Made by a program: the position numbers and the translations under genes
Notes under the pieces: model-generated
The model's database searches: none
Told to the model about the DNA's origin: nothing
The model's input: the letters and a program-made list of their open reading frames with translations, nothing else
In this document: in pieces, positions 3,753 to 26,633 of the stretch
Position numbering within the stretch: the first letter of the stretch is position 1
Layout of the letters: every line of letters begins with the position of its first letter
Sequence record: PQ303785.1
Origin: Escherichia phage LYE-01
Length of the DNA: 64,000 nt
Direction: 5' to 3' (one strand)

Positions 3753-4955
3753 ATGAAAGTATGTATTTTTATGGCTCGAGGTCTTGAAGGTTGCGGTGTA
3801 ACTAAATTTTCTCTTGAGCAGCGTGATTGGTTTATTAAAAATGGTCATGAAGTAACTTTGGTTTATGCTAAAGATAAATCATTTACTCGTAATTGCGCGC
3901 ATGATTATAAATCATTTTCAATTCCGGTTTTATTGGCAAAAGAATACGATAAAACACTTAAGCTGGTAAATGATTGTGATATTCTAATTATCAATTCAGT
4001 TCCTGCTACTTCAGTCGAAGAAGACACGATTAATAACTATAAAAAAATTATTGATAACATTAAACCTTCGGTTCGTGTTGTAGTTTATCAGCATGACCAT
4101 TCTTCTCTTTCTTTGCGTCGAAATTTGGGATTAGAAGAAACTGTTCGTCGAGCTGATGTTATTTTTAGCCATTCTGATAATGGCGATTTTAATAAAGTTT
4201 TAATGAAAGAATGGTATCCAGAAACTGTTTCACTGTTTGATGATATTGAAGAAGCACCGACCGTATATAACTTTCAGCCTCCTATGGATATTGCGAAGGT
4301 TCGATCAACCTACTGGAAAGATGTTTCTGAAATTAACATGAATATCAATCGTTGGATTGGTCGTACTACTACATGGAAAGGCTTTTATCAGATGTTTGAT
4401 TTTCACGAAAAACATCTTAAACCTGCAGGACTAAGTACTATTATGGAAGGCCTGGAACGTTCTCCAGCGTTCATTCCTATTAAAGAAAAAGGAATTCCAT
4501 ACGAGTATTATCGTCTTCATCAAGTAGACCAAATTAAAATTGCTCCTAATTTGCCAACGCAAATTCTCGACCGTTATGTAAATAGCGAAATGCTTGAACG
4601 CATGAGTAAATCCGGATTTGGTTATCAGCTGAGTAAGTTGGACAAAAAATATCTACAGCGTTCTTTAGAATACACTCATCTCGAGCTTGGTGCATGTGGA
4701 ACAATTCCGGTATTTTGGAAATCTACGGGCGAAAATTTAAAATTCCGTGTTGATAATACTCCATTAATTTCTCATGATAGCGGTATCGTTTGGTTTGATG
4801 AAAATGACATGGAATCAACATTTGAACGTATTAAAGAACTGTCATCTGACCGAGCTCTTTATGACCGTGAACGTGAAAAAGCTTATGAATTTTTGTATCA
4901 GCATCAAGATTCAAGCTTCTGCTTTAAAGAACAGTTTGACATTATTACAAAATAA
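3753..4955 (+). CDS. agt: DNA alpha-glucosyltransferase (400 aa)
   Basis: 400 aa; sequence matches my recollection of T4 alpha-gt; synteny between 55 and 47. Confidence 0.85.
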   Translation: MKVCIFMARGLEGCGVTKFSLEQRDWFIKNGHEVTLVYAKDKSFTRNCAHDYKSFSIPVLLAKEYDKTLKLVNDCDILIINSVPATSVEEDTINNYKKIIDNIKPSVRVVVYQHDHSSLSLRRNLGLEETVRRADVIFSHSDNGDFNKVLMKEWYPETVSLFDDIEEAPTVYNFQPPMDIAKVRSTYWKDVSEINMNINRWIGRTTTWKGFYQMFDFHEKHLKPAGLSTIMEGLERSPAFIPIKEKGIPYEYYRLHQVDQIKIAPNLPTQILDRYVNSEMLERMSKSGFGYQLSKLDKKYLQRSLEYTHLELGACGTIPVFWKSTGENLKFRVDNTPLISHDSGIVWFDENDMESTFERIKELSSDRALYDREREKAYEFLYQHQDSSFCFKEQFDIITK

Positions 4956-4994: not shown

Positions 4995-5135
4995 ATGATA
5001 TTTCTTGGATATGTGATACTTTTTCTGGCGTTTTATTTGTTCACCAGAGCGTGTTGGATTGGGTTCTTTAGTACTCCAGATGGATTTATTTCAATAATTT
5101 TATTTTGCATTTCAATGACGGTTCTTGATATATGA
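4995..5135 (+). CDS. hypothetical small membrane protein (46 aa)
   Basis: Hydrophobic ORF; ATG overlaps an extended -10-like TGATATAAT, so expression is uncertain. Confidence 0.25.
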   Translation: MIFLGYVILFLAFYLFTRACWIGFFSTPDGFISIILFCISMTVLDI

Positions 5136-5755
5136 AAAAATATATAACTTATTTAACAATATATAGTGGAGATAAACTTCCTCCTTTTTATATTGGATCT
5201 ACATCTTTAGACAGGCATTTAGCCGGATATCATGGATCAGTTTTATCTAAAAAGTATAAGAAAATTTATAATGAAGAACTTTCAAATAACCCACATTTAT
5301 TTGATTCATGCATTTTAGATGAATTTGATACACGCGAAGAAGCTATTAAATGCGAGCTATATTATCAACGTTTGCATGATGCGGTTAAAAATCCATTATT
5401 CTTTAATATGTCATATGCTGCTCCAAAAGGTTCATTTGGAAGAGATATTAAAGGACAAAATCATCCATTATATGGTTCTCATAATTGTAAAGGAAACATA
5501 CATTCACATGACCCATTAACAGGAAAATCTGCCTTTTTACCGTATATTCCAGAAGGTTATGTAAAAGGAAGGTCAAATAAATTTAAAGCTTCATCACATA
5601 ATAAAGGTAAAAAATGGTATAATAACGGAGTTAAGCAAATGTTATGTCATGAACCTCCTGGTCCTGAATGGACAAAAGGAAAAATTAAAGAACTAGTTTC
5701 AAAAGCAGCTAAATTAGGATGGAAAAGACACCATGAAAATACTAAACTTGGGTGA
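5132..5755 (+). CDS. GIY-YIG family endonuclease, Seg-like homing endonuclease candidate (207 aa)
   Basis: N-terminus YITYLTIYSGDKLPPFYIGSTS gives GIY and YIG motifs about 11 residues apart; basic C-terminal region (NKGKKWYNNG); overlaps gene 47 start by 23 nt. Confidence 0.6.
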   Translation: MKKYITYLTIYSGDKLPPFYIGSTSLDRHLAGYHGSVLSKKYKKIYNEELSNNPHLFDSCILDEFDTREEAIKCELYYQRLHDAVKNPLFFNMSYAAPKGSFGRDIKGQNHPLYGSHNCKGNIHSHDPLTGKSAFLPYIPEGYVKGRSNKFKASSHNKGKKWYNNGVKQMLCHEPPGPEWTKGKIKELVSKAAKLGWKRHHENTKLG

Positions 5756-6752
5756 TTGGCATTTAGGCGTTAAAGCTGATGATGAATGGATTCGCGGTAT
5801 TCAAATTGATGGAATTAAACAAGCGATAGAATATTCTAAGAAAAATGGAATTACTGTATGGATTCAATACGGTGATATTTTTGATGTACGAAAAGCGATC
5901 ACGCATAAAACTATGGAGTTTGCTCGTGAAATAGTTCAAATGCTTGATGACGTTGGAATCACATTACATACTATTGTAGGAAATCACGATCTCCACTATA
6001 AAAATGTAATGCATCCAAATGCTTCTACTGAGCTTTTGGCTAAATATCCTAATGTTAAAGTATATGATAAGCCTACTACAGTAGATTTTGACGGATGCTT
6101 GATTGATTTAATTCCTTGGATGTGTGAAGAAAATACTGGTGAAATTCTTGAACACATCAAAACTTCATCTGCTTCTTTTTGTGTCGGTCACTGGGAGCTG
6201 AATGGATTTTATTTTTATAAAGGAATGAAATCTCACGGTCTTGAACCTGATTTCCTTAAGACTTATAAAGAAGTGTGGTCTGGTCACTTCCATACTATCT
6301 CTGAGGCTGCTAACGTCAGATATATTGGGACACCATGGACACTAACTGCAGGTGACGAGAATGACCCTCGCGGGTTCTGGATGTTTGATACAGAAACAGA
6401 ACGAATGGAATTTATTCCAAACAACACTACCTGGCATCGTCGAATTCAATATCCATTTAAGGGAAAAATTGACTATAAAGATTTTACAAATCTATCAGTA
6501 CGTGTTATAGTAACTGAGGTAGACAAAAATCTGACGAAGTTCGAATCTGAACTAGAAAAAGTTGTGCATTCATTACGAGTTGTGTCAAAGATTGATAACT
6601 CTGTCGAGTCAGATGATAGCGAAGAGGTTGAAGTTCAATCTCTTCAGACGTTGATGGAAGAATACATTAATGCAATTCCAGACATCACTGATTCTGACCG
6701 CGAAGCACTTATTCAATATGCAAATCAGTTATATGTAGAGGCAACACAATGA
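5733..6752 (+). CDS. 47: gp47 recombination nuclease subunit (Mre11-like, 339 aa)
   Basis: Phosphoesterase motifs (GDWH, GNHD, GHFH); size and synteny as T4 gp47. Confidence 0.9.
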   Translation: MKILNLGDWHLGVKADDEWIRGIQIDGIKQAIEYSKKNGITVWIQYGDIFDVRKAITHKTMEFAREIVQMLDDVGITLHTIVGNHDLHYKNVMHPNASTELLAKYPNVKVYDKPTTVDFDGCLIDLIPWMCEENTGEILEHIKTSSASFCVGHWELNGFYFYKGMKSHGLEPDFLKTYKEVWSGHFHTISEAANVRYIGTPWTLTAGDENDPRGFWMFDTETERMEFIPNNTTWHRRIQYPFKGKIDYKDFTNLSVRVIVTEVDKNLTKFESELEKVVHSLRVVSKIDNSVESDDSEEVEVQSLQTLMEEYINAIPDITDSDREALIQYANQLYVEATQ

Positions 6753-7012: not shown

Positions 7013-7199
7013 CATTAACGATGAATTCATAGCAAATATTGATTACACCGAAGAAGATTCTAGATATGTTGGAATAATTTATATCACATCAAAAGCAGCA
7101 CAAGGTGTTGTTTGCATGGCTGAATTTGATGAATACTTTTTAGATTATGATGATATGATAGAATGGTCTAAAAGATACATTAAAAGGAATCTTTTGTGA
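6993..7199 (+). CDS. hypothetical protein (GTG 6993 chosen; frame open from 6936)
   Basis: N-terminus VKFSTFDINDEF resembles the N-terminus of the downstream HNH ORF. Confidence 0.3.
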   Translation: MKFSTFDINDEFIANIDYTEEDSRYVGIIYITSKAAQGVVCMAEFDEYFLDYDDMIEWSKRYIKRNLL

Positions 7200-8050
7200 A
7201 GAATTTTAAACTTGACATTAATGATGAATTTTTAATAAAGGAATTAGTTGAAAAATTAGCGTTGAGTGAAGAAGACGCCAAGTCTTACATTAATTTTATT
7301 TCTATGAATTCAACTGTTAAAACTCCAGGTAAAACGGAAGCACACCACGTGCTTCCTAAATCAATATTTCCTGAATATTTAAAATCTACATGGAATTTAG
7401 TTAATTTAAGTCATTTTAATCATTTTAAAGCACACTTCTTATTAGCAAAAGGTAAAAATGGAAAAATGCTAAATGCTTTAAATAGAATGATGTCAGGAAA
7501 AACATATAAAAATTTATCTTTAGCCGAAGTTGATTTAATAGCTGCTGAATATAGTTTTATAAAACAAGATGTAAGTGACACAATATCAAAAAGGCTTCAA
7601 CAGTATTATTCAAATCCGCAAAATAGAAATGCTGCTAGAGAAAGGGCATTAAAATATTTTTCAGTAGCAAAAAATAGGAAAGATAACAAAGAAAGATTAA
7701 ATAATTTTAAAACAAAACAAAAAATTTCAATGGCTTCAAGGGAATGGTTTAATAACGAAGAAAATAAAATTAAACACCAAAAGGCTGTTCGTGCTGCTTT
7801 ATCAAAACCTGAATATAAAATAGCTATATCAAATTCAGTAGCTGCTAGTTGGAAAAATCCGGAGATTAGAAAAGCTCATATAGCATCTAGACGAAAAGGC
7901 TATCATTGGGATAATAAAGATAAATTGTATGAATTGTGGATATCATATAATCGTCCTAAACATGTGATGTTTAGGAAAATGTTAGTTAAGAATGGATATC
8001 CAATAGAGGCTTCATTACAGGCTTTAGTTAAAGAATTTTCTTCATTGTGA
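7196..8050 (+). CDS. HNH homing endonuclease candidate (Mob-like, 284 aa, GTG start)
   Basis: HNH motif EAHHVLPKS...NLVNLSHFNHFKAH; C-terminal repeated basic modules; AT/Lys-rich composition; sits between 47 and 46. Confidence 0.65.
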   Translation: MKNFKLDINDEFLIKELVEKLALSEEDAKSYINFISMNSTVKTPGKTEAHHVLPKSIFPEYLKSTWNLVNLSHFNHFKAHFLLAKGKNGKMLNALNRMMSGKTYKNLSLAEVDLIAAEYSFIKQDVSDTISKRLQQYYSNPQNRNAARERALKYFSVAKNRKDNKERLNNFKTKQKISMASREWFNNEENKIKHQKAVRAALSKPEYKIAISNSVAASWKNPEIRKAHIASRRKGYHWDNKDKLYELWISYNRPKHVMFRKMLVKNGYPIEASLQALVKEFSSL

Positions 8051-16422: not shown

Positions 16423-16674
16423 ATGGAAACTTTAGTAGCAGGTTCAATTTTTATGGTTTTAGTTTCAGGCGTGTTGGCTATTATTATATACATGCTTCCA
16501 TGGTTTATCGCCTTGATGCGTGGGTCAAAATCGACAGTAGGAATCTTTTTCACATCTTTACTGTTTAATTGGTCAATTATTGGTTGGTTTATTACATTTA
16601 TTTGGTCAATTGCGGGTGAAACTAAAAAATCTGCACAGCAAAACCAAGTAATTATCATCAGAGAGAAGGAATGA
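16423..16674 (+). CDS. imm: Imm, superinfection immunity membrane protein (83 aa)
   Basis: 83 aa two-TM protein between 43 and 42, as T4 imm. Confidence 0.7.
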   Translation: METLVAGSIFMVLVSGVLAIIIYMLPWFIALMRGSKSTVGIFFTSLLFNWSIIGWFITFIWSIAGETKKSAQQNQVIIIREKE

Positions 16675-16820
16675 AAAGCAAAATTATAGCAGTGTTGCTT
16701 TTAATCTTGATGATTATAATAAGTATATACTATAGTGTAACGGTTCCTCTTATGATTCCAACGCTTATTATAGGGTGGAGTTTATTACTGTTACAAGTTA
16801 AATATGAATGTATCAATTGA
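16671..16820 (+). CDS. hypothetical small membrane protein (49 aa)
   Basis: ATG overlaps imm stop (ATGA); hydrophobic; ends 8 nt before gene 42. Confidence 0.3.
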   Translation: MKSKIIAVLLLILMIIISIYYSVTVPLMIPTLIIGWSLLLLQVKYECIN

Positions 16821-16827
16821 GGTTTAA

Positions 16828-17568
16828 ATGATTAATGATTCTATGACAGTTGAAGAAATCCGTCTTCATTTGGGAATTGCATTAAAGGAAAAAGATTTCG
16901 TAGTTGATAAAACCGGTGTTAAAACTATTGAAATTATTGGTGCATCATTTGTAGCAGATGAACCTTTTATTTTTGGCGCTCTTAATGATGAATACATTCA
17001 GCGTGAACTTGAATGGTATAAGTCTCAAAGTTTGTTTGTTAAAGATATTCCAGGTGAAACACCAAAGATTTGGCAGCAGGTAGCATCTTCTAAAGGCGAA
17101 ATTAACTCGAATTATGGTTGGGCCATCTGGTCAGAAGATAACTATGCCCAGTATGATATGTGTTTAGCTGAACTTGGTCAAAATCCTGATTCTCGACGTG
17201 GTATCATGATTTATACTCGTCCATCTATGCAGTTTGACTACAATAAAGATGGTATGTCAGATTTCATGTGTACGAATACAGTACAGTACCTGATTCGTGA
17301 TAAGAAAGTCAATGCAGTAGTTAACATGCGCTCAAATGACGTGGTCTTCGGATTCCGTAATGATTATGCATGGCAAAAATACGTACTAGATAAACTAGTA
17401 TCTGATTTGAATGCAGGTGATTCAACTCGCCAGTATAAAGCAGGTTCCATTATATGGAATGTTGGAAGCCTTCATGTGTATTCCCGTCATTTTTATTTGG
17501 TTGACCATTGGTGGAAAACTGGCGAAACTCATATTGCGAAAAAAGATTATAATGGTGAGTGGAAATGA
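16828..17568 (+). CDS. 42: gp42 dCMP hydroxymethylase (246 aa)
   Basis: 246 aa; thymidylate-synthase-like sequence; synteny. Confidence 0.9.
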   Translation: MINDSMTVEEIRLHLGIALKEKDFVVDKTGVKTIEIIGASFVADEPFIFGALNDEYIQRELEWYKSQSLFVKDIPGETPKIWQQVASSKGEINSNYGWAIWSEDNYAQYDMCLAELGQNPDSRRGIMIYTRPSMQFDYNKDGMSDFMCTNTVQYLIRDKKVNAVVNMRSNDVVFGFRNDYAWQKYVLDKLVSDLNAGDSTRQYKAGSIIWNVGSLHVYSRHFYLVDHWWKTGETHIAKKDYNGEWK

Positions 17569-18407
17569 TTCAATTTGTAATTCCAAGTTATCAACGCGTA
17601 GGGGCAGTTTCTGCCCTTGATATGTTTCCGACTGATTATGAACCTCATATTGTAGTACGTGAACATGAAGAAAAAGCTTATTATGACGCTTACGGGTCTA
17701 GAGCTAAAATTATAACTATTCCTGATGATGTTAATGGAATTGCTGGTACTCGTAAAGCAATTACTGATATGTATGCAGGTCAACGAATCTGGATGATTGA
17801 TGATGATACTACTATTCGTATGAGTTCAATGCGAAAGAAAGATGATCGTCGCTGCGTAGATAAAATTAATCAGTTAACCCGTGAGCAGTTCTATGAATTG
17901 ATTCAATACGTTGAAGATGCCATGGATTGCGGGTATTATCATGGTCATGCTCGTCTACCAATTTTTAAAATTACTTCATCTTGGGGTAATTATCGTGAAA
18001 ATTCATATGGATTCACGAATACATGGTATGATTTAGGAAAACTTACAACAGAACAAATTGGGTATGGAAAAATTGATTTATGCGAAGATATGTATGCATT
18101 TCTCAATTTAATTAATCAAGGTTATCCACATTTAGCCTTGTTCAAATATCTGGTTGTATCCGGAAAAGCACAGGCTCCCGGTGGATGCAGCTCAATTCGT
18201 AGTAATTCTAAACATAATAGAGCGCTTGAGCAAATCAATAGAGAGTTTCCAGAGCAAGCTCGTTGGAAAACTTCTAATATTGAAAAACGAAAATCATTAG
18301 GTGAAGAAGACGAGCCATTAAAGGTTCTTCGCATGTGTGTTTCACGCAAAGAAAAATCAGAAGCGTTTCATAAGTTTAATGCTATTCATCCAATAGCGGT
18401 TGATTAA
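17565..18407 (+). CDS. glycosyltransferase, GT-A-like with DxD motif; candidate beta-alpha-glucosyl-HMC transferase in the T4 beta-gt position (280 aa)
   Basis: IWMIDDDT DxD motif; occupies the 42-uvsX slot but is not T4 beta-gt (351 aa, different sequence by recall); ATG overlaps gene 42 stop. Confidence 0.55.
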   Translation: MIQFVIPSYQRVGAVSALDMFPTDYEPHIVVREHEEKAYYDAYGSRAKIITIPDDVNGIAGTRKAITDMYAGQRIWMIDDDTTIRMSSMRKKDDRRCVDKINQLTREQFYELIQYVEDAMDCGYYHGHARLPIFKITSSWGNYRENSYGFTNTWYDLGKLTTEQIGYGKIDLCEDMYAFLNLINQGYPHLALFKYLVVSGKAQAPGGCSSIRSNSKHNRALEQINREFPEQARWKTSNIEKRKSLGEEDEPLKVLRMCVSRKEKSEAFHKFNAIHPIAVD

Positions 18408-18485
18408 TGCCTAAATTTATTGTGTTATAATTACTCTATCTTTAACCAGTGAGGAAAATATAATGATGCCTATGGAAAAAAATGA

Positions 18486-19667
18486 ATGTCTATTGCAGAT
18501 TTAAAATCCCGTTTGATTAAAGCTTCCACTTCTAAAATGACTGCTGAACTGACTACATCTAAATTCTTTAATGAAAAGGATGTAATCCGTACAAAAATCC
18601 CAATGCTTAATATCGCTATTTCAGGTGCGATTGACGGTGGTATGCAGTCTGGTTTAACCATTTTTGCAGGTCCTTCTAAACACTTTAAATCAAATATGTC
18701 TTTGACTATGGTTGCGGCGTATTTGAACAAATATCCTGACGCGGTATGTCTATTTTATGATAGCGAATTTGGTATTACTCCAGCTTATTTGCGATCCATG
18801 GGAGTTGACCCGGAACGAGTAATTCATACACCAATCCAGTCAGTTGAACAGCTGAAAATTGATATGGTGAATCAGCTTGAAGCTATTGAGCGCGGTGAAA
18901 AGGTTATTGTATTCATTGACTCAATCGGTAATATGGCTTCTAAGAAAGAAACGGAAGATGCCTTGAATGAAAAATCTGTGGCAGATATGACTCGTGCTAA
19001 ATCACTGAAGTCATTATTCCGTATTGTTACTCCTTATTTTAGTATTAAAAACATTCCGTGTGTTGCGGTTAACCATACAATTGAAACAATTGAAATGTTT
19101 AGTAAAACCGTGATGACAGGTGGTACAGGCGTAATGTATTCGGCTGATACTGTATTCATTATCGGTAAGCGCCAGATTAAAGATGGTTCTGATCTTCAGG
19201 GGTATCAATTTGTTCTAAATGTAGAAAAATCTCGTACCGTTAAAGAAAAAAGTAAATTCTTTATTGATGTTAAATTTGACGGTGGCATCGATCCTTATTC
19301 TGGATTGTTAGATATGGCTCTTGAATTAGGATTTGTGGTAAAACCTAAAAATGGCTGGTATGCTCGTGAATTTCTTGACGAAGAAACTGGCGAGATGATT
19401 CGCGAAGAAAAATCTTGGCGTGCAAAAGATACCAATTGCACTACATTCTGGGGTCCTTTATTTAAGCATCAACCATTCCGAGATGCTATTAAACGTGCTT
19501 ATCAATTAGGTGCTATTGATAGTAATGAAATTGTTGAAGCTGAAGTTGATGAATTAATTAACTCAAAGGTTGAAAAATTTAAATCTCCAGAAAGTAAAAG
19601 TAAATCAGCAGCTGATTTAGAAACTGACCTAGATCAGTTAAGTGATATGGAAGAATTTAATGAATAA
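18486..19667 (+). CDS. uvsX: UvsX recombinase (RecA-like, 393 aa)
   Basis: Walker A GPSKHFKS; high similarity to T4 UvsX by recall. Confidence 0.9.
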   Translation: MSIADLKSRLIKASTSKMTAELTTSKFFNEKDVIRTKIPMLNIAISGAIDGGMQSGLTIFAGPSKHFKSNMSLTMVAAYLNKYPDAVCLFYDSEFGITPAYLRSMGVDPERVIHTPIQSVEQLKIDMVNQLEAIERGEKVIVFIDSIGNMASKKETEDALNEKSVADMTRAKSLKSLFRIVTPYFSIKNIPCVAVNHTIETIEMFSKTVMTGGTGVMYSADTVFIIGKRQIKDGSDLQGYQFVLNVEKSRTVKEKSKFFIDVKFDGGIDPYSGLLDMALELGFVVKPKNGWYAREFLDEETGEMIREEKSWRAKDTNCTTFWGPLFKHQPFRDAIKRAYQLGAIDSNEIVEAEVDELINSKVEKFKSPESKSKSAADLETDLDQLSDMEEFNE

Positions 19668-24714: not shown

Positions 24715-26054
<1,340 letters not shown>

Positions 26055-26114: not shown

Positions 26115-26633
26115 ATGGCATACTTTAATGAATGTTCACAACTGATTGAAGGCGCTGATAAAGCTCAAAATGAATACTGGGATATTCTCGGTGATGAAAA
26201 AGACCCGCTGCAAGTTATGCTTGATATGCAGAAATCTTTGCAGGTTCGTTTAGCTAAAGATAAACCTGAATATAACCGTCATCCTGATGATTTGGCTACT
26301 GCAGGTGAAGTTGTCGATTGGCTGCGTAATCAGAAAGATTATATTGACGATGAATTCCGTGAACTTCTGACATCTCTTGGCGGTATGAGCAATGGCGAAA
26401 AAGATGCATCTGCTGTATGGAAGCCTTGGAAAGCTCAACATGGTGAACGTCGTGAAACTCTAATTACTGATTTGTCTCCACAAGACCAGTTGGAAATTAA
26501 ATTCGAAATGATTGATATTCTTCATTTCGTTCTGAATATGTTCCAAGGTCTCGGCCTTACTGCTGAAGAAATCTTTAAACTTTATTATCTGAAGAATGCT
26601 GAAAACTTCGCTCGTCAAGACCGAGGTTATTAA
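26115..26633 (+). CDS. 56: gp56 dCTPase/dUTPase (172 aa from ATG 26115)
   Basis: Begins MAYFNECSQLIEG, similar to T4 gp56; ends ARQDRGY. Confidence 0.85.
   Translation: MAYFNECSQLIEGADKAQNEYWDILGDEKDPLQVMLDMQKSLQVRLAKDKPEYNRHPDDLATAGEVVDWLRNQKDYIDDEFRELLTSLGGMSNGEKDASAVWKPWKAQHGERRETLITDLSPQDQLEIKFEMIDILHFVLNMFQGLGLTAEEIFKLYYLKNAENFARQDRGY

Follow-up and report, generated by a model that had tools for sequence, protein, structure and literature searches.

Which enzyme does Escherichia phage LYE-01 encode in the slot that phage T4 gives to its beta-glucosyltransferase gene? In the T4 region that we fetched, gene 42 is followed by b-gt and then by segA before uvsX. A sequence-only reading of LYE-01 DNA had pointed to a 280-aa open reading frame between gene 42 and uvsX and had suggested that it encodes a glycosyltransferase of the kind found in T2 and T6. 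We followed this up within 64,000 nucleotides of LYE-01 DNA (record PQ303785.1), a stretch referred to here as the window. On its plus strand the gene order reads 55, a-gt, 47, 46, 45, 44, 62, regA, 43, imm.1, imm, 42, the 280-aa ORF, uvsX, 40 and 41, which is a T4-like block of replication and recombination genes. Over the 20 kb around the transferase gene, the DNA shares 97.5% identity with Escherichia phage vB_EcoM_P8 and with other Tequatrovirus isolates from the environment, and by this measure of sequence the phage is an ordinary member of that genus. The features on which the argument depends are as follows.

17565..18407, plus strand: probable beta-alpha glucosyltransferase gene (ba-gt / ggt / TAGT; beta-glucosyl-HMC-alpha-glucosyltransferase), assigned from the ORF, PHROG 842, Pfam PF20691, identity to the T2/T6 enzymes and GT-A fold matches.
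17799..17807, plus strand: DxD codons (Asp79-Asp80-Asp81), the putative site binding metal and the UDP-glucose diphosphate; the sole DxD, invariant and at a strand end.
16828..17568, plus strand: gene 42, dCMP hydroxymethylase, which makes the hydroxymethylcytosine (hmC) precursor; 97% identical to T4 gp42, Pfam thymidylate synthase family.
18486..19667, plus strand: uvsX recombinase, the landmark downstream of the slot; Pfam T4_UVSX_C (E=4.7e-39) and a RecA domain.
3753..4955, plus strand: a-gt, alpha-glucosyltransferase, the source of the alpha-glucosyl-hmC acceptor; 91% identity with T4 a-gt over 400 aa, Pfam PF11440 (AGT) E=2.4e-236.
26115..26630, plus strand: gene 56, dCTPase/dCTP pyrophosphatase, which prevents unmodified C from entering phage DNA; the coordinates are the span of a tblastn match, without the stop codon.

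The placement of the ORF was borne out, its neighbours being identified by the identity to T4 gp42 on one side and by the UvsX and RecA domains on the other; it thus lies in the slot of T4 b-gt. The ORF listing and its translation give an uninterrupted plus-strand frame from the ATG at 17565 to the TAA at 18405-18407; the listing itself starts the frame at a GTG upstream of this ATG (17559-18407). The ATG and the gene 42 TGA overlap as ATGA, and a putative ribosome-binding site, GGTGAG, is found 7 nt upstream of the ATG, a layout typical of a gene that is translationally coupled to the one before it, here gene 42. This junction sequence is conserved between the window, T2 and T6, and the annotated start of the transferase likewise overlaps the end of gene 42 in T2 and in T6 record AP018814. 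The G+C content of the ORF is 36.1%, against 35.0% for the window. Downstream, a gap of 78 nt (18408-18485) separates the gene from uvsX, and segA, the GIY-YIG homing endonuclease gene, is absent from between the two; T2 and T6 likewise lack it there.

Several further observations were made around the gene. Scanning for promoter and terminator consensus sequences gave no useful signal, with 18 promoter-like sites where 12.9 were expected. Inside the 5' end of the ORF, at codons 12-19 (17599-17619, plus strand), lies a 9-bp stem that has five G-C pairs and leads into a T-rich tail (TAGGGGCAGTTTCTGCCCTTG ATATGTTTCC); its sequence is the same in T2 and T6. It might act as an RNA structure on expression downstream of gene 42, or might simply follow from what this sequence encodes. 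A 49-aa hydrophobic ORF (16671-16820, plus strand) lies between imm and gene 42 and matches PHROG 3610, of unknown function, with E=5.3e-26; the T4 RefSeq record has no gene annotated in the 153-nt gap at the corresponding position.

For comparison we fetched the equivalent stretches from T4, from T2 and from two T6 records (MH550421 and AP018814). The T2 protein annotated as "b-gt: beta-glucosyl-HMC-alpha-glucosyl-transferase" has the same 280-aa length as the window protein and is 99% identical to it, differing by four substitutions (window/T2: R11/H, K92/R, I101/V and P251/S). The beta-glucosyl-HMC-alpha-glucosyl-transferase of T6 (AP018814) is 98% identical; six residues are substituted, and the DDD motif of the window protein has one Asp more. 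The window protein is a mosaic of the two, in that R11 and P251 are T6-like, Y40, D55 and R106 are T2-like, and K92 and I101 match neither. Both T2 and T6 also carry the transferase gene between 42 and uvsX, and both have the partner alpha-gt. The T2/T6 enzyme is presumably the glucosyl-DNA beta-glucosyltransferase of EC 2.4.1.28; its activity is said to have been described by Kornberg and colleagues in a 1961 paper that PMC13216743 lists as its reference 18, and the T2 and T6 genes were reportedly cloned and sequenced by Winkler and Rueger (Nucleic Acids Res., 1993).

The two T6 records disagree with each other. In MH550421 the transferase gene (5138-5980, minus strand of the fetched region) has an amber stop, TAG, at codon 10, and the annotation begins instead at Met20, giving a 261-aa protein; a protein begun there would lack the first beta-strand along with several of the residues that are invariant in the family. 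In AP018814 (5135-5974, minus strand of the fetched region) the gene is intact, but the motif has two Asp only (IWMI-DDT), whereas T2, MH550421 and the window all have DDD. This disagreement suggests that the T6 reference data on the transferase gene are unsettled, and stock-specific lesions or sequencing errors in these records may affect work that uses them as a reference. The discrepancy matters because T6 is the phage reported with the most gentiobiosyl-hmC.

Family searches agree with the comparison to T2 and T6. Residues 1-275 match phrog_842, "beta-glucosyl-HMC-alpha-glucosyltransferase", with E=5.6e-89, and Pfam PF20691 (TAGT, TET-associated glycosyltransferase) is matched over its full length (model positions 2-205 of 205) at 38.8 bits and E=1.2e-9, above the curated gathering cut-off of 27.5 bits. 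The latter score is nonetheless modest, which leads us to regard the T-even enzymes as a divergent branch of the TAGT family. In the window the source of hmC is a dCMP hydroxymethylase, whose substrate is the nucleotide, and not a TET/JBP dioxygenase, whose substrate is DNA. A Pfam scan of the transferase protein at E<=1 gave no match to PF09198, to PF11440 or to the GT2 family, and NCBIfam has no model for either this protein or a-gt. Using megablast, we found DNA homologous to the gene in 479 deposited phage records; in 476 of these the match spans 80% or more of the gene, with 90-97.4% identity. The records belong to Tequatrovirus-type phages of Escherichia, Shigella, Yersinia, Salmonella and Citrobacter, and most carry the same product name with the gene adjoining that for dCMP hydroxymethylase. 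A search of a collection of 5.8 billion proteins returned 11 homologues, from 99% down to 29% identity, nearly all with PF20691 and the close ones without exception.

The DxD motif noticed beforehand in IWMIDDDT is present at residues 75-82, and the protein has no DxD other than its DDD (79-81). By itself such a tripeptide could arise by chance. What sets this one apart is that D79, D80 and D81 are invariant in an alignment of 10 sequences (nine full-length homologues and the window protein, down to 32% identity), and that they are placed at the end of a predicted beta-strand (74-79), as in GT-A enzymes. Among the other invariant positions of this alignment are P7, S8, Y9, R11, D93, D121, D175, G206, G207, S209 and R212, and the window protein, whose frame is full length, has every one of the family-invariant residues. 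By analogy with GT-A enzymes, Asp79-81 probably hold a divalent metal and the UDP diphosphate. The catalytic base is probably an acidic residue, possibly the invariant Asp175, whose "CED" motif is similar to the "TED" motif of the base in GT2 enzymes, and it would deprotonate the 6-OH of the acceptor glucose.

The AlphaFold2 model made from the family alignment (pTM 0.75, mean pLDDT 70.9) has a confident N-terminal half of alternating beta and alpha elements, with loops 87-100, 130-149 and 194-210 poorly modelled. Searching the PDB with this model using Foldseek, all matches at E<=0.001 were to GT-A or nucleotide-diphospho-sugar transferase folds, at TM of about 0.45-0.50, and included AvpGT, the WrtF fucosyltransferase, the chondroitin polymerase K4CP, TarS, RmlT and SpsA. 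The model appears to have the single Rossmann-like alpha/beta/alpha nucleotide-sugar-binding domain by which a GT-A enzyme is recognised. The fold assignment rests on the model because the family has no experimental structure: searching the PDB by sequence gave a single, spurious match (E=0.76) and no solved relative. Thus the GT-A-like fold proposed from the letters is supported, with the moderate confidence that the model allows. Identity to the inverting GT-A enzymes of the GT2 family (SpsA, TarS, BcsA, WrtF and AvpGT) is only 9-15%, and unlike these the window transferase would, by analogy with the T2/T6 enzymes, have as its acceptor a sugar on double-stranded DNA.

Other identities for the proteins of this pathway were tried and rejected. 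Homology to T4 beta-gt was discarded on a best BLASTP value of E=3.4 together with the missing PF09198 match, in agreement with the earlier remark that the ORF does not resemble that enzyme. The same holds for homology to alpha-gt (best BLASTP E=1.0 against the window's own a-gt, no PF11440 match), while the RB69-type arabinosyl pathway was rejected because gp42 shares 97% identity with the dCMP hydroxymethylase of T4 and the a-gt present is of the T4 type. T4 b-gt (PF09198) has in common with the window transferase the slot downstream of gene 42, and it also makes a beta linkage from UDP-glucose on phage DNA. The two differ in fold class, GT-A for the window transferase as opposed to GT-B for T4 b-gt (PMC13216743), and in acceptor, which is the glucose of alpha-glucosyl-hmC for the T2/T6-type enzyme and the hydroxymethyl group of hmC for T4 b-gt. 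A 2026 study found TAGT to be syntenic with T4 beta-GT, modelled it as a GT-A enzyme sister to GT2, and reported that nearly all glucosyltransferase-encoding phages pair an alpha-GT or beta-GT with a TAGT. The unusual case is T4, not LYE-01.

The dCMP hydroxymethylase, dCTPase and alpha-glucosyltransferase through which the acceptor is made are all encoded in the window. The upstream alpha-gt is indeed T4-like, as had been noted from the sequence, and the gp56 match, obtained by tblastn with the annotated dCTP pyrophosphatase of vB_EcoM_P8 as query, is 99.4% over 172 aa. Adjoining the dCTPase gene is a gene for a Dam-type DNA adenine methylase (25275-26051, plus strand) whose protein is 100% identical to that of vB_EcoM_P8; because of this gene, the phage DNA is probably N6-adenine methylated besides its cytosine hypermodification. 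Two other ORFs may also be mentioned. One, of 207 aa, is situated between a-gt and gene 47 (5132-5755, plus strand), at a position where T4 has only the small gene 47.1, and looks from its matches like a Seg-type homing endonuclease (PHROG 10820, E=2.3e-93; a weak GIY-YIG Pfam match at E=9e-4, below the cut-off). Between genes 47 and 46, where T4 has 46.1 and 46.2, a 284-aa ORF (7196-8050, plus strand) matches homing-endonuclease PHROG 655 (E=7.8e-45) and HNH PHROG 12434, and is probably a Mob-type mobile endonuclease insertion.

Our conclusion from these results is that the window ORF encodes a T2/T6-type beta-alpha glucosyltransferase (beta-glucosyl-HMC-alpha-glucosyltransferase, ggt, TAGT) that adds a second glucose onto alpha-glucosyl-hmC, a reading to which we assign a probability of roughly 0.93. 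Our analysis contributes to it the identity to the T2 and T6 proteins, the family, the fold, the conserved motif, the intact frame and the finding that the window also encodes the partner enzymes. The proposal made from sequence alone is in this respect upheld: the protein is neither a homologue of T4 beta-gt nor a member of a non-DNA glycosyltransferase family.

For the reaction, and for what it means to host defences, we rely on published work on T2 and T6, which would apply to LYE-01 by analogy. In this scheme, gp42 and gp56, together with dNMP kinase, would lead to 5-hydroxymethylcytosine in phage DNA, and alpha-gt would add an alpha-linked glucose after replication. The transferase would then use host UDP-glucose to place a second glucose, beta-1,6, onto the first, giving gentiobiosyl-hmC; since UDP-alpha-glucose yields a beta linkage, the reaction would be an inverting one. 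The bulkier decoration would alter the set of host defences able to attack the DNA. For T2 and T6 it has been shown that the enzyme adds a beta-1,6 glucose onto alpha-glucosyl-hmC, and that the gentiobiosylated share of hmC is 5% in T2 and 72% in T6 (PMC6024577, PMC11078745, PMC13216743), T2 DNA having 70% alpha-glucosyl-hmC beside its 5% gentiobiosyl-hmC (PMC11078745, PMC6024577). Deletion of the T6 gene leaves only alpha-glucosyl-hmC; the DNA of the deletion phage can be degraded by Brig1 in vitro, and the phage is more sensitive in vivo (PMC11078745). The glucosyl hydrolase BapA releases glucose from T6 delta-g-gt DNA and not from wild-type T6 DNA (bioRxiv 10.64898/2026.02.25.707755), and gentiobiosyl-hmC is also reported as a target of GmrSD (PMC13216743). 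Environmental Tequatrovirus phages with alpha-GT and TAGT and without beta-GT have hmdC, alpha-glucosyl-hmdC and gentiobiosyl-hmdC at about 1:2:2 and no beta-glucosyl form (PMC13390438). From the gene content of LYE-01 we infer that it itself carries gentiobiosyl-hmC, and the predicted composition of its DNA is alpha-glucosyl-hmC and gentiobiosyl-hmC with no beta-glucosyl-hmC.

A transferase of this type might still contribute little in LYE-01, such that the DNA would be mainly alpha-glucosyl-hmC and bare hmC and the effect on defence small. The closest protein is that of T2, at 99% and four substitutions, and T2 is the phage with only 5% gentiobiosyl-hmC (PMC11078745, PMC6024577), but R11 and P251 are common to the window and T6 and are not found in T2, and the environmental Tequatrovirus phages with the same gene pair reach the 1:2:2 proportions given above (PMC13390438). 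We therefore see a small contribution as possible but doubtful. Far less probable is that the protein is a TAGT-family enzyme of altered specificity, using another sugar donor or glycosylating bare hmC directly. Specificity does vary within the family, because TAGT homologues accompany either an alpha-GT or a beta-GT, or stand alone, as they do in 288 of 753 phage genomes (PMC13216743), yet a change is very unlikely at 98-99% identity to the T2/T6 enzymes, and the cognate alpha-gt is present.

We give almost no credence to the ORF being a remnant without activity, or to its product glycosylating something other than DNA, for instance sugars of the host envelope. That lesions occur in laboratory stocks is indicated by the stop at codon 10 in one public T6 record, but the LYE-01 frame is intact and of full length, retains every family-invariant residue and appears translationally coupled to gene 42. 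Similarly, although the structural neighbours are transferases of polysaccharide, teichoic-acid and lipid-linked sugars, T6 genetics tie the gene to DNA modification (PMC11078745).

The T2/T6-type transferase of LYE-01 is thus a known enzyme in a known position, in an arrangement that is usual in T4-like coliphages and not new. The T2 and T6 enzymes differ at a handful of positions and the phages 14-fold in gentiobiosylation, a question already recognised in the field on which the window by itself gives no leverage. We think it unlikely that the window variant gives a gentiobiosyl to alpha-glucosyl ratio unlike those of both T2 and T6; if it did, it would help to establish whether the 5% in T2 and the 72% in T6 are caused by enzyme sequence, by expression or by alpha-gt. 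The use of the result is mainly in annotation, bringing no new biology: LYE-01 can be classed as a Tequatrovirus of the T2/T6 type, with alpha-GT plus TAGT. The gene concerned is the one that decides whether T-even hydroxymethylcytosine carries a single glucose or gentiobiose, and the type of sugar changes the sensitivity of the phage to defences that read or remove it, namely the Brig1 glycosylase, BapA/Brig3 and GmrSD-type restriction.
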